DNA of 64,000 nt. It comes from Cyanobacteriota bacterium (GTDB lineage: Bacteria > Cyanobacteriota > Cyanobacteriia > Thermostichales > Thermostichaceae). The stretch's first letter is position 1. Each line of letters begins with the position of its first letter. Under the pieces are notes generated by a model. It was given only the letters and a program-made list of their open reading frames with translations. It made no database searches and was not told where the DNA came from. Below, piece by piece: positions 11,101 through 26,881 of the stretch. The translations under genes and the position numbers were made by a program. The stretch is from NCBI GenBank assembly GCA_033764955.1, contig JANRIL010000011.1:64001-128000 (forward strand), written 5' to 3'.

Positions 11101-12588
11101 CACCAACCGCCCCAATTTCACCGCGGATAAAGAGGGAGACCCTCGATGTACTACGCCAACGCGCCAAGCCCACTCTCGCCACTGCCGCCATTCCGGTATG
11201 ACGAAATCCCCAGTTCTACGATACTCATTTGGCATTGAGGGAAAAATCTGTTTCTCTAACACCTCTGGGTGCTCATAGAGATAGTCAATCGGATCCTGAG
11301 GTTGTTCCAACCAGTGACAATAGTCTCGATCTGATAGAGTTAAGCACTTTACTTGCTCTTGGAAAAGCTTTAGAGCTGCCACCGCATCTGCATCTGCCTG
11401 ATGTGCTCGTTCCGAAGTCAGCAAGGCATGGCGACTGTTCCAGGGAGTTAGGATCCAAGACATTAATAAGGTGTCCCAAACAGGGATCCCGCTGGCAAAA
11501 TCACTGTTTAACTGCTCCAAAATCGGCAGATCCCATGCTAGGATATTGTGTCCCACCAGCCAACCTGGGTTATCTGATGCTCCAACTTTATGCAATAGAG
11601 TGCGGATCTCGAGTAAATGGGATTGGATCTTAATTTCTACATCTGAATTATCTTGAGAGTTTGGCTGAAAATACTCTAAATGAGTCCCGGACTCAGTTGC
11701 CCAACCCAACTGAAAGATCCTTTGCCCATCACTTTCTAAATCCACCGAAACCGCTGATATCTCAAGCCGTTTCTGAAAACATTGCTTGATATCCAGATAC
11801 CCTTGTTTCATCAGCTTAATTAACTCTTGTGAGCTAGCTTGCTGAGCACAAAATGTTTCTATTCTCTTGAATGATTGATGTTCCCAAACTTCCTGTAGTT
11901 GATTATAAATCTGAAATAAATCAGAAAGTTTTAACCCTTCAAAAAACTGAATAGAGCGATTATTGAGTTGAGCGTAACTCTCTCTCAGTAACTGCTGCTT
12001 CTGATTTTCATTGATCGCAAAGAAAGGAGAATTAGCTTTAGCACCCAGATATCTGTGCCAATCAGTAAAACTGGTGAGTTTTGGCTCAAACTCTAATAGA
12101 AAATCACGTAACTGCGGATCCTCATCCAAACTCAGTCGTCGCTGCGGGGTTTGATAATGAGATTTTTTATCTTTTGTCCAAAGATGTATGTACCATTCAG
12201 CCTGTAAAATCTTTAGTACCTCTTTTAATGTCCATCTTTGCATGGCCTGCAATCGATTTTCAGAGTAATTCTCCAGAGAGCCTTGTATATCTTCTTCAAG
12301 GATCCAAGAGATTGCTGATTGACGTATTTTCCTATTCTGGTGATCATGTGGTGTCACTCCAATGACAAAAAGACAACGTTGCCCACTGAGATCCTGACCA
12401 CCTAAAATTCTCCGATCTTGTGATCCAGCATACGTAGTGATGTGTGTAAATAGGTCGTCGGTTAGATCTGGAGCAGAAATCACGCCGCAATCTTTCTTAT
12501 TCCACTTACTTAAGTGTCCCACCCGCCCATAGCGGTAATAGAGATTTTTTAGGGTGGATACGTTAGATGAGAATGATGGGTTAGTCAC
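5107..12588 (-). CDS. 2493-aa fusion: cold-shock-like domain, DEDDh 3'-5' exonuclease, RecQ SF2 helicase and UvrD SF1 helicase
   Basis: CSD-like GHLSKWNKKDCGVI..DLFTH. DEDDh: VDLE, GHNILAWD, WDT, HQADADA. RecQ: LPTGEGKS, DEAH, AFGMGMD, QEVGRIGR. UvrD: AGPGAGKT, DEFQD, GDDDQ, NYRS, TIHKVKGLEFD, VAVTRAK. Confidence 0.85.
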   Translation of the reverse strand: MTNPSFSSNVSTLKNLYYRYGRVGHLSKWNKKDCGVISAPDLTDDLFTHITTYAGSQDRRILGGQDLSGQRCLFVIGVTPHDHQNRKIRQSAISWILEEDIQGSLENYSENRLQAMQRWTLKEVLKILQAEWYIHLWTKDKKSHYQTPQRRLSLDEDPQLRDFLLEFEPKLTSFTDWHRYLGAKANSPFFAINENQKQQLLRESYAQLNNRSIQFFEGLKLSDLFQIYNQLQEVWEHQSFKRIETFCAQQASSQELIKLMKQGYLDIKQCFQKRLEISAVSVDLESDGQRIFQLGWATESGTHLEYFQPNSQDNSDVEIKIQSHLLEIRTLLHKVGASDNPGWLVGHNILAWDLPILEQLNSDFASGIPVWDTLLMSWILTPWNSRHALLTSERAHQADADAVAALKLFQEQVKCLTLSDRDYCHWLEQPQDPIDYLYEHPEVLEKQIFPSMPNEYRRTGDFVIPEWRQWREWAWRVGVVHRGSPSLSAVKLGRLVEAHPERRDLRAVAVVVRQAERQQVQVVLRMIPMWLREGLDSLLYEAIDNPITAGESGDGVIGAIAYHDLPINLPIPEDIIPLYPEEGIFERIHLEPLSTEKVRQGLGSLISQTSDLAGRMLFNIPEGVDLFQWGVDKKPLHCWLEYDPLRGRQERQFPWALRLLGADLADLFEKIQQSEDVTPHNYSSQWEVILPRWKDPGGIREGLSPGSGNRLRYWDDLLLRVLSVHYQTDPDVMLLLLVDEAGEARAIEQAIATLGLTIERSGGSILRHFEKVRRRSKPLVISAIDQVDRFLDAAATLGCKVLPLIEALPLEEWWLLDQAQQENDPDLILNEAEDGYEGDGANLDEDEELQSERQGGGDRTTLLPVQISASAMTIAIERHLGPWLWTRFQFKDPSCVPIILDSRLSHLSLGQEKRILIREIPLAKLKQPERLLETLRNILGDIERRDPPTDYESYRQFLQAHWGYLDFREGTQKPAIEAIITRTQDVLVRLPTGEGKSVLFHIPALLRGAFTQRLTLVISPLRALMADQVNTLWRKGFIQSVDYLSGDRDPWQTSEVYQGIIDNRIKLLFVAPERFRIPRFREAIQRRFEFDQGFEYIVIDEAHCVSQWGFEFRPDYLFATREIRHFYRHQPNGELIPVLLFSATITEIVRKDLEQEIDANQNTYVLRPEKIRHPIQPFIQLTAENVEVTFSAQSESLSPRLGYVENIIRSADLSRSSVIIFVTRRRHAEELVKLINEREEIDCQVDYFHAGLSADLRIELYHSFLDHEIKVLVCTKAFGMGMDIAHIHWCLHLSPPNYLEDYLQEVGRIGRNKESREAASLEYVQGKLLFAPGDFDTTQSLIQLNRITVPQLRELWIEIVAEARPLIQGENPIAIIPIDEFGSFKEDALRRYLFWLEYSERLTICAYLPGLLKVELKADNLKQYSQGSDLTATVARALLSLFESNSFTISGVPVPEIDFANSDISIPEFSTALTKIDPSENQKDSRSLASSISQVIMNVAKGVLGFFFGQSLADQRSTSLPISQLTGIQTTITSSSREPIDLGTESNDERTTNDKWTTVDLSLDNLWRHSQLRQMDQVWTGILKLSQVGALKINRKIQFKKGHYHDMQEQQFKWLRKILNIVNQKAKQPRLYWDDLISDLSADLQQESMTATWSERKIKDAQKRVVRSVVKLLRDILIRFDENISDNQTIFYSYHLTPKWIEKAKLILEISQALLTILNKEPANQNEIDLTLDELLKCCPKAVKIKPLQSAIKLISNLGIYSASNEITTFSYILEILKPDQIETDREQMHPLDQKMIKTIDDLNNMALRRAQAMELYAYLPDSLRAGYIDRYFEADSLTALEKVIDSTIGEIDDDILEVNPALKQIQGRVREEAIHQAKECLNPQQKDVCEHPYNQNLLVNAGPGAGKTHVLMMRCADLIYRQGLQPHEILVLAFNRAVVYEIKKRVRDLFKQLGYGSFVRRMQVYTFHSFALKSLSDVRDRNNDLKVTLHNFALAMQTDEALRNRVSANYKAILVDEFQDMNEDFYKVILALYQGSGAGVVVIGDDDQDILLWTRKRGDRLHANQYLQDFRIDYQSDVINLLVNYRSTFDIIQRSQVLATNLIPNRVKANITLQAYRDENGIIDHQIIEDVDPKCPRLVNLAQEVMAYNCVNIEHPKSMAVLCRTNSEVFQFYNLLQNSNVKPLRIQSNNNLKLAQVREIGEWIDLCQTYLSQEPDPGLTSSIWDELLEQYRQLVLADVNYGIESIEQLRSLTFVEYESYSTLSQHLAMIQDLKTSDFTRLSQSLSNRDPGITISTIHKVKGLEFDVVYVPSSITTFPFMDKDDGDNFEGHGNNILDSAAEEARLYYVAVTRAKNELYFDWGPREKAWSKKQAFQGINQQVLRLEGSPDEVFISWPGFKEQYNDGLQDYLRTHVRINDSVVIKNRRQVLHGQRIIGYLQADLYGNDQSQIRVSNIYRYPVSVEITPEKYYKQLAPEIKTQGWHYTVLLAGQL

Positions 12589-12646
12589 GACAGAAATATA
12601 CCAATGAGATCAAATGAGTGATTTTTACTTCAGCAAAATACATATG

Positions 12647-15600
12647 CTAATTAGAGATCGGCCAGAGATAAATTAACCCTACTGGTTCCACTCGTTCCGC
12701 CTTCACCCTATAAGTTTTCTGAATCCGATCTGGTTCTGTTTGGATCTCTTGCTCTAACTGGCTGAGGCGGATTTCCCAGTGACGGTGATCGGCGTTAATT
12801 TGTCGCAATTCATCCGCATTGAATAACCCCAGTTGGATCGTCTCAAATTTGCTCTTTTCTTTGAGGATCCGATCTCGTTGCTCTTGTAAAAGTTCTTTCA
12901 TTTCCTTGGCTTCAGACTCTCCTCGCTGGTTGAGTTTACGCTGAGCGCGTTCACTCAGTTCCTTGGCCCGCCGCTCCAAATGAGGGATCAGATCCTGGAC
13001 GTCTTGGGGGGCAACCCCTTTGAGCTTCTCCAGCACTGGGGGTGGCACTTCCCGTAGGCGAGGGCTGGCGAGGGAATCCTCTAAAATCTGCAAAACATCC
13101 TTCTTTTCGCCCTCAGTAACAGGTCTTAAACGGCCCCGACCTCTGGCCTCAGGATCCACCCATTCAGCGGCCACAGTGATGATTTCATCATGCAAACGAG
13201 CTGCCCGTTCCCCGTACAGCGATAACCGTCCCAAGATCACCACTCGAGGAATGGGATCCTCACTGCGACAGACACAGGCGCGGCTGAGTTCGTGGTGCAA
13301 AAATCCCTGGGAGAGGAACCGTCCCAATAGCCGTTGCACAATGCGGTGCTCTAAATGCAGATGCACCACCTCACCATCCAGGGATCCTGGATCTTTGAAG
13401 ACTACCGGACGAATGGGGGCTTCTTTCCGCCAGTCCCAGAGTTTCTGGGTCTTCTGGCGTGGTTGCCTTAGACTGTCAAGAGTCATCGCCCAGGTGGGAT
13501 CCGCACCGGCTTCTTGATCGAGAGCAGGCAACAGCCAACGGGAACGTTCATTGTCACCGATGGCTTCCTGGGCAGAGAGAGGCTTGAGGGGTTGGGATCC
13601 GAGTAGCTCCAATGAAACGGACAGAGCCTCTCGAAAATGGCGATCATCCAATCCTAACCATTGCTGCGAGTCACGAAGCATGGTTTCCAACTCCACCTGT
13701 TGCTGTCGGAGTTTGTCCTGGCGAAGGCGAATGGCTTCCAGTTCTTCCCGAATTGCGCCGCGCCGCTCATCATCGTTGTCTTTGTCGGCCTGGTTTATAG
13801 CGGAGCTGAGACTATCAACCTCGGTTACTCGGATCCCTCGCTCCAACAACTTGGTGACGTTCTTCTCCACCACCGGGGAGAGGCTACCCAATTCTTCCTG
13901 GATCCGTTGGGTCTTTTGCACCAGCACATCCATCACCCTGTCTTCAGGGCGCTGGGGTAAGACGAAGTAATAGCAACGGACTTCAGTCTGTCGCTGGAGT
14001 TTGCGGTCAATCCGCCCATTGCGCTGTTCCATGCGGCTGGGGTTCCAGGGCACATCAAAGTGAAACAGATCTGCACAGTGATTTTGTAGGTTTACCCCCT
14101 CACGGGCAGCGTCGGTGGCAATGAGAATCCGCAAGGGATGTTTGTGGGGATCCATGTTGAAGGCTTCTTTGATTAAGCGGCGATCCTCTTTACTCATCCC
14201 GCCATGAAATGTACCAATCCGGTCATAATCACGGTCGGATCCGGCAATCAAAGAGCTTAACTGTTGTTCCAAATAGCGCTTGGTATCAGCGTATTCGGTG
14301 AAAATTAGTACCCGTGTAGGCATCCATGCTGCTCCTGGGGATCCCATCTTGGGGCAGAGGTTTTGACGGATCCAGTCGCCTAATTTTTTGACTTTGCTAT
14401 CAGGTTGGTGGCGGCTTCGCTCAGCAATCTGGGTCATCTCTTCTAACAGTTCAAGTTCTTTTGAGGTGATGCCCTCGGTTCCGGAGCGGCTGGCCTTTTC
14501 CATCTGAGCCGTTTCTTCTGCAAAGACTTCCAGTTCATCAAGATCGGCTCGCTCGTCATCGGAGCCTGGAGATTCCCATAACAGGGGATAGGATTGCTGG
14601 GTTTCCGGGACTACTTTTTCTAACTGCTTTTGGATCCCGCGTCGGTGAACCCTCAAAGTGCAAGCAAACGCTTCGATAGAGGACATTAGCCGCTTTTGCA
14701 AAGAGGTGATCACCAACATGGACGTCGTTAGGGTGGAGCGGGGAGCTGATTTCAGCCGTTCCTCTCGGCAGGTTCTATACTCCTGCAGCAGTTGAGCCAG
14801 CGTTAACTCTGGGACATCATCCGGCAATCCATCAATCACTACGGGTACGACATGACGCAATGGAAAATCAGCGTTATTAATTTCTCGTAGATCCTGCTTA
14901 AGACGACGAACCATCACCGCATCCAGCAGTTTCTTGCTCCGTACAGGCACCCCTCGACAAAATCGCTGCGGATCCAAAATTTCTAAAAGCGCCGCAAAGC
15001 TATTGGAGTGTCCGTTGTGAGGGGTGGCAGACAAGAAGAGCCGATGTTCAAAGCGAGGAGCCAATTCCCGCACTGTGCGAGTGAGTTGGGAGTCAATGGC
15101 ATAGCGGGTTCCACTGGCGGGGGCAGCATTGTGAGCTTCGTCGAGGATGAGTAGGGATCCTGGGGCAAAGTCCTGCATCCAGTCTCGTAAGGGTGCAGCG
15201 TAGGTTTCATCCCGCAATAGTGCGTGGGAGATGATAAATCGATTGTGGGTTTTCCATGGGTTCATGCCGTAGCCCCTTTCTCGACGCTTGGCCGCCACAA
15301 AATCTCGGTCATAAACAATGAAGGTGAGCCCAAAGCGGCTCTCCATCTCATCTTTCCACTGATCCACCACTGAGGGTGGGCAAGAGATCACGACCCGCTT
15401 CACCTTCTGCCGCATCAGCATCTCTCGCAGGATCAGTCCAGCCTCTATGGTTTTGCCTAAGCCCACATCATCAGCGATGAACAGATTTACCCTTGGCATT
15501 TTCAAGGCTTTACGAAGGGGTTCTAGCTGGTAAGCTTTGACCTCAATCCCAGCTCGGTAAGGAGCTTGAAAAAGTTTGGGTTCAGTGGAAGTGACACAGT

Positions 15601-15868
15601 TCCACCTCAGAGCGTGCAGAAATGCAGAAAATTGGCGAGGTTGATCAAAGCCCCGTTGAGTGACCTGTTCCCAGGAAGAGGTGGCCAAGATCTGGGCATC
15701 AATTTCCCTTTGCCAGAATACATTTAGAGGCTCACCCTGAGCATCGTCTTCCAAACAAGCCAGCCTCACCTGGGTATCCCCTGTGGGGGATGGGATAACC
15801 TCCTCAACGAGATATTGACGGGAGCGGATTCTAACTATCTGACCCAGTTCTGGAGAGATTGAGTGCAC
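12647..15868 (-). CDS. drmD: SNF2-like helicase, DISARM DrmD
   Basis: PELGQIVRIRSRQYLV N-terminus, IADDVGLGKTIE, DEAH, LSATPHNG, TDAAREGVNLQ, MEQRNGRIDR, and C-terminal EPVGLIYLWP. Confidence 0.88.
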   Translation of the reverse strand: MHSISPELGQIVRIRSRQYLVEEVIPSPTGDTQVRLACLEDDAQGEPLNVFWQREIDAQILATSSWEQVTQRGFDQPRQFSAFLHALRWNCVTSTEPKLFQAPYRAGIEVKAYQLEPLRKALKMPRVNLFIADDVGLGKTIEAGLILREMLMRQKVKRVVISCPPSVVDQWKDEMESRFGLTFIVYDRDFVAAKRRERGYGMNPWKTHNRFIISHALLRDETYAAPLRDWMQDFAPGSLLILDEAHNAAPASGTRYAIDSQLTRTVRELAPRFEHRLFLSATPHNGHSNSFAALLEILDPQRFCRGVPVRSKKLLDAVMVRRLKQDLREINNADFPLRHVVPVVIDGLPDDVPELTLAQLLQEYRTCREERLKSAPRSTLTTSMLVITSLQKRLMSSIEAFACTLRVHRRGIQKQLEKVVPETQQSYPLLWESPGSDDERADLDELEVFAEETAQMEKASRSGTEGITSKELELLEEMTQIAERSRHQPDSKVKKLGDWIRQNLCPKMGSPGAAWMPTRVLIFTEYADTKRYLEQQLSSLIAGSDRDYDRIGTFHGGMSKEDRRLIKEAFNMDPHKHPLRILIATDAAREGVNLQNHCADLFHFDVPWNPSRMEQRNGRIDRKLQRQTEVRCYYFVLPQRPEDRVMDVLVQKTQRIQEELGSLSPVVEKNVTKLLERGIRVTEVDSLSSAINQADKDNDDERRGAIREELEAIRLRQDKLRQQQVELETMLRDSQQWLGLDDRHFREALSVSLELLGSQPLKPLSAQEAIGDNERSRWLLPALDQEAGADPTWAMTLDSLRQPRQKTQKLWDWRKEAPIRPVVFKDPGSLDGEVVHLHLEHRIVQRLLGRFLSQGFLHHELSRACVCRSEDPIPRVVILGRLSLYGERAARLHDEIITVAAEWVDPEARGRGRLRPVTEGEKKDVLQILEDSLASPRLREVPPPVLEKLKGVAPQDVQDLIPHLERRAKELSERAQRKLNQRGESEAKEMKELLQEQRDRILKEKSKFETIQLGLFNADELRQINADHRHWEIRLSQLEQEIQTEPDRIQKTYRVKAERVEPVGLIYLWPISN

Positions 15869-16114
15869 TGATTCTTCTCAGGTTTTGCTTACAACGGTAG
15901 CAAAAGCTTTACGGGCTCTGATCACGACATGCAAGCAAGAATGATGAATGATGAGGCATTAGGGAGAGAATTGACACACCGACTGCAATTACTCGGCCTT
16001 GCTTTGGATCTGTTCCTCGCACTCCGGAGCAATCCTATCCAGTCTTTATGGTTGTCAGGCTGAAAGTTCCACTGTCAATAGTTTGTTTGGGGTGAGTCGG
16101 CTTGGATCTTGCCT

Positions 16115-16318
16115 CTATTCATAAGCAGGTTTCAGTTCCCAGGAATCTTCGATGGTGGTGGTTTCCTTTCCCCGTCGCCACTTGACTTTGTAACGACCCG
16201 TGCGGGTAATGCCAATGACTTCCCCAATAGGGTAGATAGGCCAGCCACAAGGATCTTTGGGAAAGCGGCGGGTGAGGGTGTTGCGGTAACTTACACGGTC
16301 GCCAATCTGGAATTCCAT
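16115..16318 (-). CDS. Small hypothetical protein (KOW/SH3-like pattern)
   Basis: MEFQIGDRVSY...GEVIGITRTGRYKVKW, with a GGAG RBS inside the repeat leader. Confidence 0.65.
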   Translation of the reverse strand: MEFQIGDRVSYRNTLTRRFPKDPCGWPIYPIGEVIGITRTGRYKVKWRRGKETTTIEDSWELKPAYE

Positions 16319-16357
16319 ACTGAGATCTCCACTCAATTCACCCAAGCCGTAGGACAG

Positions 16358-16555
16358 TTATCGCCAGCCATATCCAGGCTTGGGACGAGTGTAATAGTCA
16401 GGGTGAACCGCACGGTCAGCCGCATCTTTTACGTCGTCATGGGCATAAGGGATCCCTCGTTGCAGGCATTCGTCCTTGAGGAGATCAATGAGTTCAGATA
16501 GGTCGATATCGGGGTTGGCTTTCTCAAGTTGACGGGCTAAGGTTCTAAGTTTCAT
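16358..16555 (-). CDS. Small hypothetical protein
   Basis: MKLRTLARQLEKANPDIDLSELIDLLK..., co-oriented in the array; start uncertain. Confidence 0.6.
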   Translation of the reverse strand: MKLRTLARQLEKANPDIDLSELIDLLKDECLQRGIPYAHDDVKDAADRAVHPDYYTRPKPGYGWR

Positions 16556-16654
16556 GGTGGGTGGGGTGTCGGGGTGGAGCCTGGTACACTCCTTCACCAG
16601 GCGGTAGGGCGACAAAGAATAGGGATCCCCATCGGTTAGGGATCCCTAATCAAT

Positions 16655-17182
16655 CTATGCAGGTAGTTCCAACGGCTGAGCTTCTGCATCTTTGAGATGC
16701 CGGACATCTGCTAGGCGGGAAGCATAGAGATCCTGCTCACTGGCGAAGGCTTGCAGTTCTGTCACACGTTTCTTGTTCGACTCTTTCCACTCAAACTCGA
16801 CGGCGTAGTAGACTCCCAGATCACCGGAGCGCTTGGACATCTTGGCGGTGGTCACCCCTTGCCCGACAGCTTTGCTCTGGGATGCCAGATCGAGCATGAA
16901 GTCGAGAAAGTTATCCAAGCTCTGAGTTTTGAACAGAATGTGGCTGACGACATTACGCGGATCCACAAACAGAACTTCCAGCCAAGTTTGATGCGGATAG
17001 TCGAAAAGCTGATCCTCGAAGGTACGCCAAGATAGGATTTCCATTGCCAATGTGGATCCGATAAACTTGGATTCGCCAATTTTGAACACACCGGACTTGC
17101 AATCAGCGCGATACTGACAGGGGCGGCCAGGAATGTAGGTGATTCCTTTCAGGTCAGGGGTAGCAAATGCGTTCGCAAACAT
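16655..17182 (-). CDS. Hypothetical protein (possible ssDNA-binding/OB-like)
   Basis: 175 aa, strong AAGGAG RBS, beta-rich and aromatic pattern with an acidic/Pro tail. The function is an inference. Confidence 0.7.
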   Translation of the reverse strand: MFANAFATPDLKGITYIPGRPCQYRADCKSGVFKIGESKFIGSTLAMEILSWRTFEDQLFDYPHQTWLEVLFVDPRNVVSHILFKTQSLDNFLDFMLDLASQSKAVGQGVTTAKMSKRSGDLGVYYAVEFEWKESNKKRVTELQAFASEQDLYASRLADVRHLKDAEAQPLELPA

Positions 17183-17233
17183 GATGATTTCTCCTTTTGA
17201 GAAACTAAGTTACACAATCACCAGAGGACTCAG

Positions 17234-17665
17234 TTAAGCTCCTATTTTTGACTGTTGTGCATTGATATATTCACGCAAATTCTGATATCCATTGGCAAAC
17301 AGAACAGCATAGCCATGTTTACAGCAAGCTTGCTTGAAAAATACCTTTTGATTCTGGTAGTCATCACAGGTGCAATGCAAGCTACTGCTTTGGAGTAAGA
17401 CTTGATGTTGATGCCCATTCTCTGGATTGAAAACGAGATAATGATTTTGAGAATTTAGCTTGATCTCCAACTCTGTAGCTAAAGACTTACGAGTTTCCAC
17501 AAAGTCTTGGTGGAAGGCTTTTCGAGACAGGAAGCGGGGACGGGATCCCTTGACTTGAGCGAGTATCACTCTAGGCCAGACTTGGATCTGGATGTGGTGA
17601 GGCATGACTCCCAGGATGCGGCTGGCAGCGGTGCGGGAATACAACATCTTCTCTTTCGTTATCAT
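17234..17665 (-). CDS. SWIM zinc-finger protein
   Basis: CTCDDY...CCKHGYAV matches the CxC-xn-CxH motif. Confidence 0.8.
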   Translation of the reverse strand: MITKEKMLYSRTAASRILGVMPHHIQIQVWPRVILAQVKGSRPRFLSRKAFHQDFVETRKSLATELEIKLNSQNHYLVFNPENGHQHQVLLQSSSLHCTCDDYQNQKVFFKQACCKHGYAVLFANGYQNLREYINAQQSKIGA

Positions 17666-17700
17666 TGTTTAGCCCTCTTAACGACACCCATTCCGTAGGA

Positions 17701-18030
17701 CTAATACTCGCTACTGTGCATTAATGTTAGAACCCGTCTCGTTTGAGTTAGATCCGCTGGATCTGGGGAGAGATATTTCAAGCTCTGGTCGTAGTAGTCT
17801 ATCTTCCAGAAATACTTTTCTCCATTATAGTCAATTGCCCCAAAGTCATGCTCTCCATAAGGATCATTGTCTTCATTAAAGACATTAAACTGTCTGACTA
17901 GCTGGAGTAGTTCTGAGATATGGGATCCCAGTAATTGAACAGTTGGAGTGATGACAATGTAAGCATTCCAGGATTTGCGGAATTCGTCATTCAGCTGAGC
18001 AATTCTTTGAGTTGTTTGTGTGATTGACAT
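17701..18030 (-). CDS. DUF3768-family protein
   Basis: IAQLNDEFR...FNEDNDPYGEHDFG...FWKIDYYD...RVLTLM..EY; start re-assigned to the ATG after GGAG. Confidence 0.85.
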   Translation of the reverse strand: MSITQTTQRIAQLNDEFRKSWNAYIVITPTVQLLGSHISELLQLVRQFNVFNEDNDPYGEHDFGAIDYNGEKYFWKIDYYDQSLKYLSPDPADLTQTRRVLTLMHSSEY

Positions 18031-18067
18031 GGGAAGGTCTCCTTGTTTCACAATTGCCGTAGGACTG

Positions 18068-18421
18068 TCAATACATGATGTGACTGGGTTTATTAAGGGA
18101 CTTGGCAAGTTGGATGCTATGGGCAGTGCCGGGGCTGAATCCGTCCCAAAAGGCGACAATTACATCCGCCGCTTGAATAATGTCGTGATTGCGTCGGATC
18201 CCTGCTAACTTGCCGTGTTGATGCCAGTCGGCGGGGTGGATTTGGACAGGGATCCCTCTGGCACGAGCTGCTTGTTCCGCCGTCTGGTCAACGCCTCTGG
18301 CTCCACCACTAATGACGATGCAACCCTCTGGTAATTGAGCAACAAAATCCCGCACGGCTTTGAGATTCCAGTAAGTCCTGGAGCCAATGACTGCTACACG
18401 ACAGGGATGAGTGGTGAGCAT
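18068..18421 (-). CDS. SLOG-family (YspA/DUF2493-like) protein
   Basis: VAVIGSR, ISGGARGVD, W..HGKLAGIRRN and AFWDG.SPGT. Confidence 0.85.
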   Translation of the reverse strand: MLTTHPCRVAVIGSRTYWNLKAVRDFVAQLPEGCIVISGGARGVDQTAEQAARARGIPVQIHPADWHQHGKLAGIRRNHDIIQAADVIVAFWDGFSPGTAHSIQLAKSLNKPSHIMY

Positions 18422-18454
18422 AAACTCTCCGTCAACTTCACCCCCGCCGTAGGA

Positions 18455-18628
18455 CTACAACTGGTCGGCTAGCGCAGTCAGGATCCGGTTCACATAGACC
18501 TCTTGTTCGCGCCAGCGGCCCCTTGGGGCATAGATCGGCACTTCTTCTGGTTGGCTATCAGGGAAATGTTCTGCAATCCAGACTAGGGCTTGTTCCATCA
18601 GGTAATCCAGGATTTGAGAATTGAGCAT
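18455..18628 (-). CDS. 57-aa hypothetical protein with an in-frame mini-repeat insertion (not in the ORF track)
   Basis: MLNSQILDYLMEQALVWIAEHFP...TALADQL, with a GGAG RBS and leader repeats on both sides. Confidence 0.65.
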   Translation of the reverse strand: MLNSQILDYLMEQALVWIAEHFPDSQPEEVPIYAPRGRWREQEVYVNRILTALADQL

Positions 18629-18666
18629 GAGTGTGTCTCCACATCGACACCCCCGCCGCAGGACTG

Positions 18667-18840
18667 TTAATCATCTCCCAGTAATCGAGTCATGAAATTG
18701 AACAGCTTCTCGCCGGAATCAGAATCCGAATCATCCAACGTAAACACCGCCATGCGCCTAGGGCACGCTAGCGCGAACACTACATTCACGTCTTCATCCA
18801 CATAGTAGATTTCTGGGGATCCGTTCTCTTGATCTGACAT
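18667..18840 (-). CDS. 57-aa acidic hypothetical protein with an in-frame mini-repeat insertion
   Basis: MSDQENGSPEIYYVDEDVNVV[FALACPRR]MAVFTLDD..., following the leader repeat at 18870. Confidence 0.6.
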   Translation of the reverse strand: MSDQENGSPEIYYVDEDVNVVFALACPRRMAVFTLDDSDSDSGEKLFNFMTRLLGDD

Positions 18841-18959
18841 TTCATCGACCTTCACTGACGTCACCCACTCCTTAGGACAGCCTAAACCTTTCTTTAGAGG
18901 GAGATGGGGTCTGGGGAACGCGCAGGGGAAGGGTGGGGTAAGTTCCCCAGTGGAGAGGT

Positions 18960-18984
18960 AAAAAAAGGGGATCTCGGGATCCCC
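18960..18984 (-). terminator. Rho-independent terminator
   Basis: The minus strand reads GGGGATC-CCGA-GATCCCC followed by a run of T, just after the 18993 stop. Confidence 0.75.
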
Positions 18985-18992
18985 AACTTGAT

Positions 18993-19166
18993 TTAGCGGC
19001 TGACGGCGACGTAGATGTTGCCCCACTTGGACTTGGCAACACGGGCACCGGGATAGTGAGTGGAGAATGCCAGAGCCGTGTTGATGTCCTTAAAGTGGGC
19101 GATGTAGGCATCAGGGGTCAGGACTGTACGGGTGGCACCCCAGAGACGGGCAAAGTTGAAGCACAT
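18993..19166 (-). CDS. 57-aa hypothetical protein (not in the ORF track)
   Basis: MCFNFARLWGATRTVLTPDAYIAHFKD...IYVAVSR, with an AGAGG RBS and a terminator after it. Confidence 0.6.
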   Translation of the reverse strand: MCFNFARLWGATRTVLTPDAYIAHFKDINTALAFSTHYPGARVAKSKWGNIYVAVSR

Positions 19167-19693
19167 AGGAAAAACCTCTTAACGATGCCAGCACAAAGAT
19201 CCCGCCCCTCTCCTGCAAGCAAGGCTCAGGCACCTTGGAATATCGCAGGGACGAGAATATGCCGAGAAAGGCATGGACGACTCTTGCAGTCCGGCTGTTC
19301 GCGCCAGTGTGCCCAAGGCGCAATCAGTTGGTGGTTTTGGGTGGGACACGGTGCCGTGGCAGTGGAGAGGGATCCGCTGTGCCGCTTGACTCCCGACCTG
19401 GTGCCTCCCTATTCCTGTTCGGTCTAGATGCCGTCAACATTTGGGACATCAACATCTCAGGCACATCAACTTCTGGTGTGGGAGGGGAACGGAGTGCTGG
19501 TGGGTGGGGCGAATTGAGGGATCCCTGGGGAGAACGGGGGTATGGGGGAATGCGGCGGGTGGGTGGGTCAAGTTCCCCCATTGTGAGGTGGACAAGCTCT
19601 GTTGGACACGTCACCTGAGCAAGAGTCCCGACGTGCGGCAGCGGGTCGGTTCCATAGCCGGGTTTAGGGATCCCTTGGCTTAAGGAATAAGAA

Positions 19694-19716
19694 CTGGGGA
19701 GAATAAATCCCCCCAG
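19694..19716 (-). terminator. Probable terminator hairpin
   Basis: Minus-strand CTGGGG...CCCCAG stem followed by TTCTTATT, after the 19728 stop. Confidence 0.55.
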
Positions 19717-19727
19717 CCTTGTCAGAC

Positions 19728-20150
19728 TTAGATAGCTCGATTGAACCGGGCAGCACTGCGTTCTGCATTCAACGCCAAGAGGCTTTCGAGGTCATGCTGG
19801 TAGTGCTTGTGGGCAAATTCCACCAATTCTTCCAGACTGGCTTTGATGAATCCTCGGTCGAATTCGTCTTTGAACTGTTCCCAGGCTTCTGCATAGAGCT
19901 GTTTGATGGCTGCCGGGTCATATTCCGGGCGGCTGTAGGATCCATCTTTTAGGCGGACAGGAGGGGCAATGGGATCCAAGGTGCCATCATCTACTGCATC
20001 TTTGAAAATGCGTCCTTTGGACTCTTCCCAGACTAGGGACCGCAGGGTGTAGAAGACGGCTTGCTGTTTGCGAAAGGTTGATTGTTCGTCACGTTCACGG
20101 GTGGTGAGAGGGCGGAACTTGCTAGAGAGGGCTGACTTTTCAATGGACAT
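19728..20150 (-). CDS. Hypothetical protein
   Basis: MSIEKSALSSKFRPL..., 140 aa, GGAG RBS. The upstream extension in the ORF track crosses repeat DNA. Confidence 0.75.
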   Translation of the reverse strand: MSIEKSALSSKFRPLTTRERDEQSTFRKQQAVFYTLRSLVWEESKGRIFKDAVDDGTLDPIAPPVRLKDGSYSRPEYDPAAIKQLYAEAWEQFKDEFDRGFIKASLEELVEFAHKHYQHDLESLLALNAERSAARFNRAI

Positions 20151-20584
20151 AGGACAAACTCCAAAATCGATAACCCCGTGCCAGGGAGCAAGGCCAGAAG
20201 ACGGAAAGGGGCGACGGCAACCGTAGGGCTTGTTCGCGCCAGCGTGCCCAAGGCGCAAGTTTTTCCGACCTGCCTTTTTAGGAAAAAGTTTTGACGGCGT
20301 ACATTTCACCCCTTGGAGTCTGAGTCGCCGCAGATCCTACGCTCAGGGGTCGATTTCTGGGGTGTCTGTTTGTCCACGAAGTTTGCCATAAGCAGGGGTT
20401 CGCTTTACTGCTGAACTGGATGAACGGATTTTCATTGGGGAGTGGAATGGCGGCGCGGTGGTGGGTGGGTCAAGCCGCTTCATCATTAGGGATCCCTAAA
20501 AGTCAATAGGTTCTAGGGATCCCCTAAAACAAAGGGATCCCTCAAAACAACGAGATAGTGCTACGCACACACAAGGTCAGTTCC

Positions 20585-20746
20585 TCAAAATGGCCAGTCA
20601 AAAGGTAGGGATCCCCATTCTTCCATCTCCCATAATTCCCGCTCTGCTTCACGGAGTTTTTCTCGCTGGTCAATTTCTAAATCGAGGGATCCCCATTCGG
20701 CTTGAGCCACGAGGAAATCAACCATTGGGTCGCCACTTCTGTACAT
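20585..20746 (-). CDS. 53-aa acidic hypothetical protein (not in the ORF track)
   Basis: MYRSGDPMVDFLVAQAEWGSLDLEIDQREKLREAERELWEMEEWGSLPFDWPF, following the leader repeat at 20774. Confidence 0.55.
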   Translation of the reverse strand: MYRSGDPMVDFLVAQAEWGSLDLEIDQREKLREAERELWEMEEWGSLPFDWPF

Positions 20747-20762
20747 AATCAACACTCATCAA

Positions 20763-21095
20763 CTACACCCGCTCCGTAGGACTGTTGACACTTGCCAAGA
20801 TTTGCTCTTGTTGCCGTTGAATAACTTTTAGGGAGGAGACTCTATGGCAGATTGCAGTTTTTATATCTTCCATTTGGTCAAGTAAGTAGCCGTATGCTTC
20901 ACCAGCACCATTTTCAGGTAGAGCATCAAAGGCAGCGCGTAATGAGAAGTAGACCTTGAGTTTGTTTTTCAGCCATTGCGCTTGAGATTCTAGTTCTGCT
21001 AGTTGGATAGAATCGGGATTTCTGGCGTTCATTAACTCCAGGATTCGTTGCTCTAATTCGGTCAAATCAGAACTTAATTTCTGTAAGGCGGTCAT
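20763..21095 (-). CDS. Coiled-coil hypothetical protein
   Basis: 110 aa with a heptad pattern; GGAG RBS in the leader repeat at 21124. Confidence 0.7.
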   Translation of the reverse strand: MTALQKLSSDLTELEQRILELMNARNPDSIQLAELESQAQWLKNKLKVYFSLRAAFDALPENGAGEAYGYLLDQMEDIKTAICHRVSSLKVIQRQQEQILASVNSPTERV

Positions 21096-21200
21096 CGTTA
21101 AGTCTCCACATTTTCACTCCTTTCCGTAGGACTATTTGGTTTGGGTTTATTTGTTGCGTGGGATAGGGATCCCTTGACTCTGTGACGGTGGACAGGGAAC

Positions 21201-21244
21201 TGATATGGATTTGATATGGATTTAATACGGAACTAATACGGATT
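21201..21244. repeat. Four tandem 11-bp repeats (operator/iteron-like)
   Basis: TGATATGGATT TGATATGGATT TAATACGGAAC TAATACGGATT in the divergent intergenic region. Confidence 0.75.
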
Positions 21245-21346
21245 ATCGATTATGCCTTTGGCACGCTTGCGCGAACACTTGCCTAGTCATGTGCCCAGGT
21301 CTTCAAAGGACTCTGTGATACGGTCGGAATAGGGGGGATGTGAAGT

Positions 21347-21520
21347 ATGGACAAAGGCAAGATCAAGCAACTGCGCCTCTCTCTGGGGATGACTCAGGAA
21401 CAATTTGCGGCGGCTTTGGGGTGTACTACATCCACCGTTGTGCGCTGGGAAAGTGGCAAATCTTCTCCCTCCCCGTTGGCGCAACAATCCATGTTCAAAC
21501 TGGCTCCTGCGTTTGCCTAG
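21347..21520 (+). CDS. XRE-family HTH regulator (not in the ORF track)
   Basis: MDKGKIKQLRLSLGMTQEQFAAALGCTTSTVVRWESGKSSPS is a classic XRE pattern; 57 aa. Confidence 0.9.
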   Translation: MDKGKIKQLRLSLGMTQEQFAAALGCTTSTVVRWESGKSSPSPLAQQSMFKLAPAFA

Positions 21521-21586
21521 TCATCTGCTCTGGAGAACTGAATTCACCCTGAATATCGTGGTCATAAATGGACTTAGGGATCCGAT

Positions 21587-22297
21587 ATGGCACGAAATAA
21601 AGGGATTATTCAACTGCAAGGAACGGTAGGGGGTTTGACCTTCAAACGGGATGGCACGATTAGTCAGGCGGTGGGATCCCGTCCGGTGACGGCGGAACGA
21701 ACGAAGGAAAATAACACTGAATTTGCCATTGCTGCCAAGCAAGCCAAGGTGATCCGGGATGCCTTGCGGGGCTTAGATGTAGGCGACCGCTTTCTGGCAG
21801 GGCGGATGGTGAAGGTGGTGCGCTCTGGGGTGGCGTTGGATCCCGATAATGAGCGGGGTAAACGGATCTTGTCGAATAACGAGGCGCGGCAGGTGTTGCC
21901 TAAGTTTGAGTTGAACGGCAATGCCAATCTGACTTCGGTGGCTCCGCTGGCGTGGGTAGTGGCAGGAGATGCGCTGACGATTACCAAGATGGGGGGCGGG
22001 GTGCTGACTCCTCGGGATATTTATGCTCCAGCGGGGACTACGGATATCTCGGTGATGGCGTTGGTGGCGACTGTGAATTTGGATCCTGATGTGTTGAGCG
22101 TGGTGGAGGCGGGAATGACGGCGTTTCCGGTGGTGGGAAATCCGGGTGCGGCTGAGTGGAGTGTGCCGTTGCCGGAAGATCCAAACTTGCTGACTTTGGG
22201 GGCAGTGGGGGTGAAGTTCTTTCAGCGTGTCAACGGCGAGTTGTATTCGCTGCGGAATGGATCCTATGACGTGGCTCAGATTGTGGTGGTGCGGTAA
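21587..22297 (+). CDS. Hypothetical protein, possible virion structural protein
   Basis: 236 aa with a basic helical N-half and a beta-rich C-half, heading an operon with membrane proteins and a lysin. The function is an inference. Confidence 0.75.
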   Translation: MARNKGIIQLQGTVGGLTFKRDGTISQAVGSRPVTAERTKENNTEFAIAAKQAKVIRDALRGLDVGDRFLAGRMVKVVRSGVALDPDNERGKRILSNNEARQVLPKFELNGNANLTSVAPLAWVVAGDALTITKMGGGVLTPRDIYAPAGTTDISVMALVATVNLDPDVLSVVEAGMTAFPVVGNPGAAEWSVPLPEDPNLLTLGAVGVKFFQRVNGELYSLRNGSYDVAQIVVVR

Positions 22298-23335: not shown

Positions 23336-24286
23336 CTAGTAACTTTTAATTTTCGGTGTTGCAAAGTTCGAAAATCCTGAGAAATCCGGGTAGATCGTTG
23401 AATGCCTGTAACCAAAGAGCTTATCTAGTCTTCGGCGAATATCCTCTTTTGCTTGCGCTTTAATTCTGAACGTATACAGGGCACCAGATCCAGCGCTTTT
23501 TCCCTTAACTGGTTAAAACACATGAGGTCTTGCTGCTATGCAGCACGCTTTTCTCCCTTCTTCAATCGTCCACCAACCGTCTTTATAGTTGGGAGACTTC
23601 GGAAATTGGAATTTCTTATTATCGGGCTTATTTGACGCAGGCACACCACCAAATAAGAAGCCCCCATTTTGGGCTGCGATTCGTGCGTCTAAATTGGAGG
23701 GTTTCCAAGCAAAAACCGACGTAGTCCATGCCTTCTTATCTATTCCATCTTCTCCGCCAGACTTCCATGGTTTGCTAAAATCGTCTTCCCATAAACGAAA
23801 AATATCATTCTCGTTAATTAGCCGATCGGTCACGTCAAATGCGAATAGTCTTGCGTCCTTATCTTCGTGAACTCGAACTCCGTTGTTCCATTTTTCTTCA
23901 ACCGCAAACCATACACCCACCCAAGCATTGAAAGTGATATCTATTAAGCGTGTAGGCGCACCATAATGTTGAAGCATTGCAAGCTGATTTAGTATAGAAA
24001 GCCGTCCCGTCTGGGAGGATGAGTGCAGCCCCCATCGGTGCAACTCAGCGAGAATATCTTTCTCTTCTTTCGCAATGTCATCTTCAGTAAGAACCTTACC
24101 TTTTGTAAGATTCATCCTTCGATACAAAGAACTATGAAGCGCCCAACTTGCGTCAATCTGACCTCGCCAAGCAAACTTAATATTCTTGCTTACGGCCTTT
24201 TCCATAACTTGGTTGATGACTGTAAGCAATCCATTAAAGTCGGCAATCTCTTTTTCAAAGGGCTTCCAGAAATCTTCAGCACTCAA
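23336..24286 (-). pseudogene. FRG-domain protein with an in-frame premature stop at 23513-23515
   Basis: WRGQ, LHSSLYR, LQHYGAPTRLID and RIAAQNGGF. After TAA the frame continues PVKGK...LDKLFGYRHSTIYPDFSG to a TAG at 23336. Confidence 0.8.
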
Positions 24287-24609
24287 AATATGCTTCCTTT
24301 TCGCTTAATCCGTGATTAAACTGCAGTGGGAGGTCTCCATGCGGATCTATCACTCAAATTGTAATGATAAACGGCATAAAAACCCAAGTTCTATTTGAAT
24401 GCTAGAATTGTATCTGAAAAGGACTATCAGGTCAAATTATATTAAGTTCCAAGAAGCTCACAGAGGGCTATGGATAATATGCGTATTGTTTGGATAATCG
24501 GCATAATCCATGAGCAACTTCCCAGCGGTGAACCCCAGGTTCGACAAAGTAAAGTACCCTTCCCACCACACCAAAATCCTGCGAGGGGATCATCCCGTAA
24601 ATTAGCGGA

Positions 24610-24708
24610 AAGGGTTTGTTCATCTGGATGCGTGTGCTGGGATCCCGTGTTTTAGGGAATAGGTAGTGCGGAACCCGGGGGATTTGTTGAGGGGGATAGA
24701 GGGATCCC
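24610..24708 (+). repeat. Degenerate direct copy of 23130-23227 (3' end of the M15 peptidase gene)
   Basis: AAGGGTTTG..CATCTGGATGCG...TGTTTT.GG..ATAGG...GGATTT.TTGA.GGGG.TAGAGGGATCCC is shared by both sites. Confidence 0.75.
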
Positions 24709-24844
24709 ATGTGGTCATTGGCTCCAGGCTTTTGCTTAAGATATCTCAGAGATTGAAGCCGATTTATCCCCAACACCTATTCACATAAATTTTGCTTCTT
24801 AGTATCTAGTAACTTGGTGTAAGTAGTTTCCTCAAATTTACTAT

Positions 24845-25285
24845 CTATACTAGATTCTTTACAGAAGCATTAGAGATCATGCACAACTCATTTGCCACCT
24901 GGACTCTATGACAGCGGCTTGGATCCAATTCGGCGCAAAGTAAAACTACATTATCAGTTTCGACAATTTTTGAGATTTCCCTCAGGATTAAATCTGCATT
25001 TTTAAGATCAGGTGGAACCCATTTATTGGTTTTAGTAGTATTTCCTAAAGCAGTTGCTGAAATATACTTTACACCAATTGATTTGCAAAAATTTTCTACT
25101 TCATCTCGATACCATATTCTGCTCCAAGCTTTGGGAGAAAGTCTCACATCAATTAGGTATTTAAGATCATATTGCAAGAAATAGCTTCCTAATTGAGAAT
25201 AGGAAGTTCGGTTGCCGTAACCGAAAGTAAAAATTACTTTTTGACTTAGTAGATCATCATCCATCTTTTTTCCTAATTGACTCAC
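24845..25285 (-). CDS. DUF488-family protein
   Basis: IFTFGYG, LIDVRLSP and LLCAE.DP..CHR. Confidence 0.85.
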   Translation of the reverse strand: MSQLGKKMDDDLLSQKVIFTFGYGNRTSYSQLGSYFLQYDLKYLIDVRLSPKAWSRIWYRDEVENFCKSIGVKYISATALGNTTKTNKWVPPDLKNADLILREISKIVETDNVVLLCAELDPSRCHRVQVANELCMISNASVKNLV

Positions 25286-26055
25286 CCTAAAGGTGGGTAG
25301 AACAGTCCAATAATCATAAAAGTGTTTTTATGATTCTTAAGATTCCCTACTATAAAGTGTAACTCCTTTTTGTACATAAACTCATTCTCTAGTTTTAGTC
25401 GGACTTTCTCGAGAGCTTCAGATTCCTTTCCAAGGATATCTTTAGCTTGTGATTTCAAACGACAATTTCTATACAATTGCATAATCTCCCAATCGCTTAT
25501 TGTGAAATTGTGAAGCGTATTGTCTGTTTCGAGAAATCGATAGCCAAACTGATAAGGTATTTTCTCCAAATTCGAAGAAGGCTCAAACATATCCATTTGA
25601 TCAAGTATAGCTTCTTGCCTTGGACTCCACTCCCTGCTAGTTTCTTTGTGAAAGTATTTAAGAATTTGTTTTGGCTTTATCATCCCTAAAGATTTATTTA
25701 AGGACTTTATTTCACACAAAGTTTGAGATTCAAGAGGATATAACAGGGATTTTCTCTCTGCCCAACTATTTTTAGTGTCAATTTTTCTTATGACCCTTAT
25801 CGACTGATCGTCGATCCGATAACTTTCGACTCTGTAATCCTTGTCGTTCCGCTCGATGTCTGCTTCAATAATTGACCATCGTGGATATTGCTGATCAATA
25901 CTAAGGTCGCGGAATCGGATTGGATAAATGCGGATCCATTCTATTGGCTGATCGTTATTATCAAGGAGAACTCCAGCAGTGCAGACAGTCTCTTTATATT
26001 TTCTGCTTATAGATGGATAGGTTTTTGTTGCAATCAGTATTCTCTTCCTTTCCAT
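25282..26055 (-). CDS. Hypothetical protein of the type usually found next to DUF488
   Basis: KTYP..S.KY.ETVCTAG...WIRIYP.RFR...FMIIGLFYPP; AT-rich and overlapping DUF488. Confidence 0.8.
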   Translation of the reverse strand: MERKRILIATKTYPSISRKYKETVCTAGVLLDNNDQPIEWIRIYPIRFRDLSIDQQYPRWSIIEADIERNDKDYRVESYRIDDQSIRVIRKIDTKNSWAERKSLLYPLESQTLCEIKSLNKSLGMIKPKQILKYFHKETSREWSPRQEAILDQMDMFEPSSNLEKIPYQFGYRFLETDNTLHNFTISDWEIMQLYRNCRLKSQAKDILGKESEALEKVRLKLENEFMYKKELHFIVGNLKNHKNTFMIIGLFYPPLG

Positions 26056-26804: not shown

Positions 26805-26881
26805 GGCATAGCCCCAAGCACTATTGACACTGTATCAGAAGAGGGGAGTAAACTCTTATGATAGTGAGAGCAATATTACCA

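Follow-up and report, generated by a model that had tools for sequence, protein, structure and literature searches.

Among described repeats, the closest analogue of the element reported here is the start-associated sequence (SAS) of Cluster K mycobacteriophages, an asymmetric 13-bp repeat that includes AGGAG and lies 3-7 bp from the start codon (PMC3203893). Its function was given in that account as unproven, with a bound factor proposed (PMC3203893), and a report of 2025 still calls it unverified (PMC12699233). In this study, we analysed a 64,000-nt stretch of DNA from a cyanobacterium of the family Thermostichaceae (contig JANRIL010000011.1, positions 64,001 to 128,000 of the forward strand), hereafter called the window, and within it a short two-block motif. 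In array A, a block of 12 small minus-strand genes, nine have a leader whose conserved 5′ half is this motif. The motif is a real, selected and lineage-restricted leader element. It follows the same genomic logic as SAS and, by this analogy, would be an element of the start-associated kind in a new phylum.

As SAS are described, the likeness extends to several properties: both elements are short and asymmetric, keep one orientation, are confined to non-structural genes, stand at the starts of genes of varied families and are rare in the host, and SAS-bearing genes, too, mostly use ATG. However, SAS includes the Shine-Dalgarno (SD) sequence, whereas the motif in the window begins 34-39 nt ahead of the ATG and is distinct from the GGAG that follows it; its host belongs to another phylum and the two sequences have no similarity. 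Extended SAS (ESAS) are, on the published description, 17-bp inverted repeats, whereas our motif has no symmetry. Since position, length and sequence differ, the motif is not a member of the SAS family.

The stoperators of Cluster A phages are likewise asymmetric, oriented with transcription, located in short intergenic spaces and present in many copies per element (PMC9283540). According to that description, however, they span the whole phage genome and also serve as promoter operators, whereas the copies here lie in one 5-kb module; nor do stoperators keep a fixed distance to the start codon. The only repressors recognised in our locus are a 57-aa XRE-type protein and S24-type CI proteins; a two-domain repressor, with a helix-turn-helix (HTH) and a second DNA-binding domain, was not identified. 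The promoter early stem-loops (PeSL) of T4-type phages are regulatory repeats between small non-essential genes of hyperplastic regions, in which exchanges shuffle genes (PMC2839356). A PeSL, as described there, is a strong sigma-70 promoter plus a terminator stem-loop, and our motif contains neither. The block also recalls an integron in that small unrelated genes stand in an array, with an element repeated at their boundaries. In integrons, attC sites are imperfect hairpins at the 3′ end of the cassette, and the cassettes need an adjacent IntI and attI; the present repeat is instead unstructured and start-tied, with no adjacent integrase. It differs from repetitive extragenic palindromic (REP) elements and miniature inverted-repeat transposable elements in that it is not palindromic and in that 22 of the 26 matches to its extended pattern in the source genome fall in five arrays. 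In phage T4, one protein, RegA, represses many early mRNAs through an unstructured sequence of the initiation region. RegA sites, which are AU-rich and of loose conservation, overlap the start codon, whereas our motif is GC-rich, sharply conserved and upstream of the SD. In the literature searched for it, no description of the motif was found; motif strings appear there only as unrelated oligonucleotides, and the term 'DUF3768' matched no paper.

The motif in the window and in related genomes

The first-pass annotation of the window had listed nine minus-strand copies, and reading of the strand together with pattern searches confirmed all of them. They lie in 16339-21133, each ahead of an ATG gene, and read Y-A-GTCCT-n-C-GG, three (once four) free bases and k-k-GTG, followed by a GGAG-type SD and the ATG. 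Copy 1 (21115..21133, first G of GTCCT at 21132; TAGTCCTACGG-AAAG-GAGTG) has the 4-nt spacer and heads gene g1, with 37 nt from the first G to the ATG. Copy 2 (20766..20783, first G at 20782; CAGTCCTACGG-AGC-GGGTG) heads g2 and sits within the 3′ end of the g1 reading frame, and copy 3 (18862..18879, first G at 18878; CTGTCCTAAGG-AGT-GGGTG) heads MSDQ, the first gene past a terminator-like hairpin. MLNSQ is headed by copy 4 (18648..18665, first G at 18664; CAGTCCTGCGG-CGG-GGGTG), the SLOG gene by copy 5 (18439..18456, first G at 18455; TAGTCCTACGG-CGG-GGGTG), the DUF3768 gene by copy 6 (18049..18066, first G at 18065; CAGTCCTACGG-CAA-TTGTG) and the SWIM-like gene by copy 7 (17685..17702, first G at 17701; TAGTCCTACGG-AAT-GGGTG). 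Copy 8 (17213..17230, first G at 17229; GAGTCCTCTGG-TGA-TTGTG) is degenerate and heads MFANAF, whose ATG is an outlier at 47 nt. Copy 9 (16339..16356, first G at 16355; CTGTCCTACGG-CTT-GGGTG) heads a 67-aa basic gene found in array A only. All are on the minus strand. The six adjacencies to stop codons noted at first pass also hold: at MLNSQ to SLOG and at DUF3768 to SWIM the TAG of the motif is the stop of the preceding gene, and at MSDQ to MLNSQ, SLOG to DUF3768, SWIM to MFANAF and 65-aa to 67-aa gene the stop is separated by 1-3 nt from the A/T that precedes GTCC.

Searched in the window with up to one mismatch, the bare 9-mer GTCCTACGG gave 11 matches against 7.13 expected, a number reached by 11 of 100 shuffles and not significant, although 9 of the 11 were on the minus strand inside 16347-21132. 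The extended pattern GTCCTNNGGNNNKKGTG gave 9 matches, 8 of them exact (these all in the array), against 1.17 expected, and none of 100 shuffles reached 9; the copy at 21132, with its 4-nt spacer, was picked up by the 9-mer search only. Outside 16339-21133, the window holds only weak one-mismatch matches, at 34726, 41371 and 58097.

The source genome (G000; 3.8 Mb, 48 contigs, 89% complete), whose contig C14 contains the window, carries five arrays, within which 16 of 25 exact GTCCTACGG matches fall, as do the extended-pattern matches already mentioned. Besides array A (the window, minus), these are array B (C14:133.5-138.1 kb, plus), array C (start of C10, plus), array D (C11:17.2 kb, two genes only) and array E (end of C25, plus); contig ends cut two of the five. 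They are diverged paralogous copies. The first-pass annotation had proposed a genome scan with a weight matrix. Trained solely on 15 copies from other genomes and run over both strands of G000, such a matrix had its 13 best matches all in arrays, as well as 20 of the 23 matches at ≥20.4 bits, and the motif is therefore not common genome-wide irrespective of gene starts.

Among 41 relatives, only G000 (19 matches) and its sister genome G013 (4) stood out. A pattern search of 401 genomes of the class, made with A/G-variant patterns and thus covering forms other than the T variant, gave 17 matches in G000, 2 in G013 and at most 1 in every other genome. An MFANAF protein search found homologues in 15 of the 401 and, with them, the T-variant array of G162, a cyanobacterium from another family. 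G162 has about 11 copies of AGTCCTTCGG-nnn-TTGTGAT, which share one strand and are contained in 9.3 kb of a 61-kb contig. This GTCCTTCGG variant precedes a gene set partly different from that of G000, with AGTCCTTCGG-nnn-TTGTGA kept before x1, x2, DUF3768, UvrD, SWIM, x4, x5, MFANAF and Gp157, and the proteins common to the G162 and G000 arrays are 27-53% identical. Two short metagenome contigs have a GTCCTGCGG form, and motif-bearing arrays are known in all from three independent lineages. No array was found in the nine other members of the G162 family searched; three scans of viral contigs gave single matches only and no array, a relaxed regular expression over 356 loci gave no further array, and a wider genome-contig scan gave single chance matches only among the matches listed. 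Relatives with homologous SWIM, MFANAF, Gp157 and DUF3768 genes have ordinary leaders without the motif. Because the same genes do without it elsewhere, the motif belongs to one island lineage and not to the genes. A different start-associated motif in these motif-less relatives was also looked for and rejected, the AACGCAAATC repeats of locus L255 being clustered iterons and not leaders.

Anatomy and conservation of the leader

For the analysis of the leader, we used a curated set of 40 copies (array A 9, B 8, C 4, D 2, E 2, G013 4, G162 9, metagenome 2), drawn from 45 regular-expression matches by requiring a downstream reading frame that opens with ATG and runs for 40 codons or more. Four weak two-mismatch matches that head no recognised array gene were dropped, as was a degenerate copy ahead of a 67-aa gene of array B. 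The copies at C10:1372, G013:920 and G162:6405 are true ones outside the set, lost to the reading-frame filter because of a broken downstream gene, a TTG start or overlap with another open reading frame (ORF) call.

The logo of the 40 copies shows two blocks, A-GTCCT-n-C-GG and k-k-GTG-w-a-r-TT, with centres about 13 nt apart and no symmetry. All 40 lie on the coding strand with an ATG reading frame downstream, the frame being itself the selection criterion. The distance from the first G to the ATG is 34-39 nt in 37 of 40 copies (mode 36), and the three outliers (43, 47 and 47 nt) are all MFANAF leaders. A GGAG SD follows 7-11 nt past the GTG block, and 17-22 nt separate the end of the motif from the ATG, so that the leader reaches from about -37 to -14 relative to the ATG. 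Huttenhofer and Noller reportedly found in 1994 that the 30S initiation complex protects about -35 to +19, and by analogy the motif leader would fall within the protected region.

In five orthologous leader sets, none of 25 columns varied in GTCCT and none of 10 in GG, and 3 of 25 varied in kkGTG; positions 6-7, by comparison, varied in 5 of 10 columns, the 3-nt spacer in 9 of 15, and the spacer plus SD in 25 of 95, with which the 40-copy logo agrees. The interleaving of free positions with conserved bases reflects purifying selection on particular bases rather than homogenisation of a tract. The motif also precedes the first genes of units, for example g1 (after a divergent control region), MSDQ (after a hairpin) and the genes behind the G162 copies 11102 and 12820, and no motif follows the last genes of units. 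It is therefore tied to the start of the downstream gene and not to a stop, and that it touches the upstream stop codon is a matter of tight packing. The families that it heads are unrelated to one another and include genes unique to one array copy.

No common secondary structure was found in minimum-free-energy folds of 45 leaders, and several specific structures or pairings were tried and rejected. A hairpin between the GTG block and the pre-ATG region gave -3.36 kcal/mol for true pairs (n=40) and -3.10 for mismatched ones (n=1448; p = 0.47), and is strong in the MLNSQ leaders only. Sequestration of the SD by the UCCU of block 1 would lower SD accessibility, which was 0.57 in 36 native leaders and 0.56 with block 1 shuffled (p = 0.16); the pairing probability between SD and block 1 was 0.10 and 0.11, respectively. 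A UNCG tetraloop does not fit, since non-complementary bases flank C(UNCG)G and the loop C is not constant, differing in 7 of 40 copies. Local alignments of 19 leaders with 16S rRNA did not outdo shuffles (p 0.12-0.99), for either similarity or complementarity; the 16S sequence was that of the sister genome G013, since G000 lacks a 16S gene. We therefore take the resemblance of AGTCCTACGG to the ACTCCTACGG region of 16S as chance. An antisense small RNA encoded by the island lacks support, as 34 kb of island A hold no anti-motif site on the array strand. Comparison with 39 tRNAs gave mere generic T-arm resemblance, which speaks against an origin from a tRNA 3′ half. Rfam gave no match at E ≤ 1 in window 15500-22000. 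The search for sigma-70-like promoters gave two matches against 5.1 expected, both on the opposite strand and none on the array strand. An elemental pause, an ops-like element, a sigma-54 or extended -10 promoter and an upstream ORF starting at the GTG, all judged by eye against consensus sequences, misfit in register or are not universal. The first-pass view that the units are not clustered regularly interspaced short palindromic repeats (CRISPR), attC or REP is borne out, as the motif has no hairpin or inverted repeat, is not palindromic and is almost confined to the arrays.

Possible functions of the motif

Each cistron has a single site of this kind, unstructured, asymmetric, conserved at particular bases and fixed in its place, and such a pattern suggests that a trans-acting factor recognises it as a linear sequence. 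What was observed of the motif is where it lies and which way it faces, its spacing, the conservation of particular bases, its restriction to the arrays and the absence of secondary structure; that it acts at the RNA rather than the DNA level, and that a binding factor exists, we infer. Tentatively, and with confidence somewhat short of even, we favour a start-associated linear cis-regulatory site, read by a putative trans-acting factor and acting on the mRNA, either on the initiation of its translation or on its fate. Such a factor would recognise a bipartite, non-palindromic, unstructured linear sequence on each cistron, most likely on the mRNA and in the upstream part of the ribosome-binding region, and the translation or mRNA fate of all cistrons could thereby be switched together.

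Several points weigh against this reading. No gene is common to all motif arrays yet absent from motif-less relatives, except possibly that for the SLOG protein (three lineages), and gene co-occurrence names no candidate binder. The XRE protein, put forward for a binding assay at first pass, is not supported as the binder, since copy D does not preserve the motif-like AGTCCTTTG that lies near the XRE start in copy A. The computed results fit RNA-level and DNA-level recognition alike; coding-strand orientation and intergenic position also suit a stoperator-like DNA site, and compaction could partly account for the tight spacing. The SWIM, MFANAF, Gp157 and DUF3768 genes of relatives manage without the motif, which is thus not needed for these genes as such, and two MFANAF leaders tolerate about 10 extra nt, which weighs against strict geometry.

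The favoured reading can be extended to an island-specific 'expression adaptor', in which a dedicated factor would read AGUCCUnCGG...GUG on every cistron, forming a private post-transcriptional regulon that also recruits motif-headed genes; we regard this extension as distinctly unlikely. Its factor might be a single-strand binder of the module (the OB-fold-like MFANAF or the DprA-like SLOG protein) or a host protein. The 20-nt identity might let the recombination genes of the island slot in new motif-headed genes, giving an integron-like recruitment of genes that would need neither attC nor IntI.

Of the rival explanations, the one we take most seriously, although it is still unlikely, places recognition on DNA: the motif would be a stoperator-like operator or roadblock, at which a monomeric two-domain repressor, encoded by the island or by the host, silences the module by blocking initiation or elongation. 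An asymmetric site in one orientation within very short intergenic spaces is what is described for L5-type stoperators (PMC9283540), block centres some 13 bp apart are a spacing at which two DNA-binding domains could occupy adjacent major grooves, the leaders gave no RNA structure, and CI-like and XRE regulators are encoded nearby. Against this, the motif is confined to the small-gene array and absent from the rest of the island, including the control regions of the CI and primase genes; no copy overlaps a recognisable promoter, a common repressor gene is absent from arrays B, D and E, and a roadblock would not be expected to keep 34-39 nt to the ATG. The regulators nearby are the 57-aa XRE and the S24-type CI, and proteins of these two types bind palindromes as dimers. 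Rather improbable, in our judgement, is that each gene has a compact promoter of its own, read by a non-canonical polymerase or sigma factor, with transcription starting just past the GTG block and a short leader beginning near the SD. The motif is a contiguous ~20 nt with a G-rich downstream block, to which promoters of single-subunit polymerases bear a loose likeness; the 7-11 nt between GTG block and GGAG equal a typical -10-to-start distance, and at a similar position the SWIM gene of motif-less relatives shows a TATAAT-like hexamer. However, the array strand has no sigma-70-like promoter, and Pfam found no phage-type RNA polymerase among the ORFs scanned (window 425-43025, the array B, D and E loci and G162 loci, a set that takes in the first 43 kb of the window and a part of the G162 contig). 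The three bases just ahead of the putative start vary freely, and hairpins and C-rich elements already split the block into about five units. Still a little less probable is an RNA processing site, at which a sequence-specific endoribonuclease would cut the polycistronic RNA in each leader to release monocistronic mRNAs. One unstructured site per cistron, right after the preceding stop and on the transcribed strand, would suit such a role, and the RNase III sites of T7 are a precedent for intercistronic processing in phage early operons. But the motif also precedes the first genes of units, where there is no upstream cistron to remove, no nuclease co-occurs with the arrays, and cutting would not require a conserved distance to the ATG.

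We give the lowest probability, and consider very unlikely, that the motif is a recombination or capture site bounding mobile cassettes, whether site-specific or through short homology. This was among the three options offered at first pass, together with RNA processing and protein-bound translational control; protein-bound or RNA-level control has become the best reading, while capture has fared poorly in view of colinear copies, breakpoints elsewhere and the missing inverted repeat. Some of the evidence does favour exchange at the motif. Homology of A with B and E begins at the 5′ edge of the first motif (window 21133, 21137), genes present in a single copy of the array are still motif-headed (the 67-aa gene unique to A, and a 67-aa gene unique to B with its degenerate motif), and SWIM and MFANAF, which have no gene between them in G000 or G013, are separated by one gene in the metagenome contigs and by two in G162. 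The Gp157 gene is first in G000 and last in G162, and PeSL provide a precedent for regulatory repeats that mediate shuffling (PMC2839356). Nevertheless, arrays A, B, C and G013, four copies at ~80-83% nucleotide identity, are colinear, and a kept gene order in related loci was part of what the first pass had named as refuting its idea, which applies here to the close relatives. The outermost edge, at 21133 and 21137, is the sole homology boundary that coincides with a motif; the others fall at a C-rich element (18953), past the MFANAF terminator (16548-16551), at the g2 stop and inside genes, and a sliding identity profile has no sharp switches at motif columns. There is no attC-type inverted repeat or hairpin. 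The integrases are of phage type and 11-13 kb off, and no integrase or recombinase was found in the regions scanned near arrays B, D and E, whose flanks are host, lysis or cas genes. The extra gene of the metagenome contigs has no GTCCT block, the free positions between conserved ones indicate base-specific selection and not homogenisation, and the tight spacing from motif to ATG would go unexplained. Short-homology exchange at the leaders, PeSL-like, may occur as a by-product; it is not why the motif is kept.

Array genes, the surrounding island and biological meaning

The 12 proteins of the array show no paralogy (blastp, E ≤ 0.01), in agreement with the first-pass statement that they are mutually unrelated. 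All are encoded on the minus strand. The first gene, g1 (20763..21095), encodes 110 aa, and its N-terminal part is homologous to a 174-aa Gp157/Mu-Gam-like gene in array B; the Gp157/Mu-Gam-like assignment is based on the full-length form of arrays B and G162, of which g1 is a shorter variant. The next, g2 (20585..20746, 53 aa, isoelectric point [pI] 4.1), belongs to no family. There follow two genes without the motif: a 140-aa gene (19728..20150; 193 aa from an upstream GTG), which has a homologue in G162 and is followed by a terminator-like hairpin at 19692-19718, and a 57-aa basic gene (18993..19166), which is unique to array A and is followed by a terminator-like hairpin at 18967-18984. 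MSDQ (18667..18840, pI 4.1) and MLNSQ (18455..18628, pI 4.4) both encode 57 aa and carry a 24-nt in-frame insert that the 49-aa forms of C10 and G013 lack. Together with g2 they make up the three small acidic peptides that correspond to those noted at first pass. The SLOG protein (18068..18421) matches YAcAr (PF10686) and has weak DprA-like matches, and the DUF3768 protein (17701..18030) matches PF12599 at E 5.9e-35. Of the domains named at first pass, SLOG, DUF3768 and XRE were thus recovered by Pfam, whereas the SWIM-like protein (17234..17665, 143 aa) has no Pfam match and only its G162 homologue matches PF04434. MFANAF (16655..17182, 175 aa) is the most conserved array protein, with 93-95% amino acid identity between copies, and is followed by a terminator-like hairpin at 16620-16648. 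The block closes with a motif-less 65-aa gene (16358..16555) and the motif-headed 67-aa basic gene (16115..16318), both unique to array A.

The predicted model of MFANAF (predicted local distance difference test score 77.7) has an OB-fold-like core with middling structural matches, to the phiC31 integrase-recombination directionality factor synapse chain (Z 7.1), T4 gp32 (Z 5.4) and SSB/RPA OB folds (Z ~4), and we regard these as a possible lead and not an assignment. The G162 array additionally encodes a UvrD helicase and a PD-(D/E)XK nuclease. The anti-defence cargo suggested at first pass was not demonstrated: the recognisable genes (Gp157/Mu-Gam-like, DprA-like SLOG, DUF3768, SWIM and OB-fold), together with ORFs of no known family, look like a phage recombination or early module. 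Near MFANAF homologues of other genomes, in L264 (G236:C4, 300-570 and 6070-6300), L261 (G155:C5, 7939-8110) and L263 (G317:C1), there are unrelated repeats, comprising TATCGTCAC iterons in both orientations, GGAAACACTT tandem repeats beside a masked stretch and a CTCGGACG-type 10-12-nt tandem array; an apparent CRISPR array among these loci appears as 12 overlapping 8-mers, each counted 60-63 times.

Terminator-like hairpins (after the 140-aa gene, the 57-aa basic gene and MFANAF) and C-rich elements split array A into about five units, and since the hairpins divide the block it is not a single operon. Three units open with a C-rich element (GGGGAACTTGACCCACCC...) in place of the motif. This element, GGGGAACTT(G)ACCCACCCACC, lies on the minus strand at ~20455-20480, 19560-19585, 18935-18955 and 16560-16580; it heads long gaps and units lacking GTCCT, is present in arrays A, B and E only, and coincides with two of the homology boundaries. 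C-rich elements and terminator-like hairpins give moron-like units, which look more like mobile modules than the motif-headed genes do. Another element of ~27 nt, TGCGCC..GGCGCGAACA with GCGCC/GGCGC arms, has five copies in the genome, all in these arrays. In the window it is found at ~18753-18780, 18510-18535, 20230-20260, 19295-19322 and 21250-21280. Within genes of array A it is in frame, adding 8 residues to MSDQ and MLNSQ (57 versus 49 aa), and it also lies inside the N-terminal extension of the 140/193-aa gene. The palindrome GGGATCCC has 58 copies in the window against 1.81 expected and occurs in the array as well, where it forms parts of the terminator-like hairpins; the islands therefore carry the host's own repeat signature.

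Divergent from the array is the gene for the 57-aa XRE-type HTH protein (21347..21520, plus; Pfam). The region between it and g1 (21134..21346), presumably the promoter/operator of the first unit, contains five 9-nt iterons (TCCGTATTA twice, TCCATATCA twice and TCCCTGTCC once) and a block, TTCACAGAGTCARGGGATCCCTATCC, that is kept in copy D.

The block of array A is the small-gene module of a prophage-like island that has lysis genes as well, and every array copy in G000 adjoins such genes, which encode an endolysin of the M15 or GH108 type and a holin-like protein. Arrays B, D and E are short remnants amid host genes; B measures ~6.5 kb and adjoins a tRNA-Phe gene, and at L218 (G000:C11, 8855-16321) array D ends at a truncated g2, followed by a WYL regulator and type I-E cas3, cse1, cse2 and cas7. 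The window does contain the two tyrosine integrases reported at first pass as lying 11-13 kb away (31806-33095 and 33380-34630, 10.7-13.5 kb off), which have phage SAM-like and arm-binding domains. They belong to two mirror-image small integrative modules placed back to back (26151-33095 and 33380-41266), each with an S24 CI-like repressor, a small HTH protein, a Toprim/AAA_25 primase-helicase, a UvrD-like helicase and a tyrosine integrase, and related pieces occur on at least six other contigs. Directly downstream of array A, on the minus strand at window 425-15868, lie defence genes resembling DISARM (defence island system associated with restriction-modification). These comprise DrmD, an SNF2 helicase (12647-15868; NCBIfam NF038317, 1165.8 bits against a cut-off of 610), a 2493-aa RecQ-like plus UvrD-like helicase (5107-12588) and a split DrmMI (2293-5094 and 425-1597) with a PIN-domain gene (1633-2049) in between. 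Array B has no such genes, indicating that this cargo belongs to copy A alone. On the minus strand at 23513-26055, in the interval from the lysis genes to the CI repressor, an FRG-domain protein matches the PADLOC candidate PDC-S15, and a DUF488 protein and a 257-aa protein match PDC-M19A/B.

In practical terms, the motif marks the true starts of small genes that ORF callers miss or mis-start; in the G162 locus L251, for instance, a motif at 6405 is followed by the ATG of its gene at 6442. As it is short, sharply defined and unstructured, it is also an easy bait for the factor that would read it, and a handle for reporters. Start-tied repeats have been known from one group of mycobacteriophages, with their mechanism open for 15 years. 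The finding of an unrelated motif with the same logic in prophage-like islands of cyanobacteria, in two host families, suggests a more general device by which mobile elements may place many unrelated small genes under one switch.

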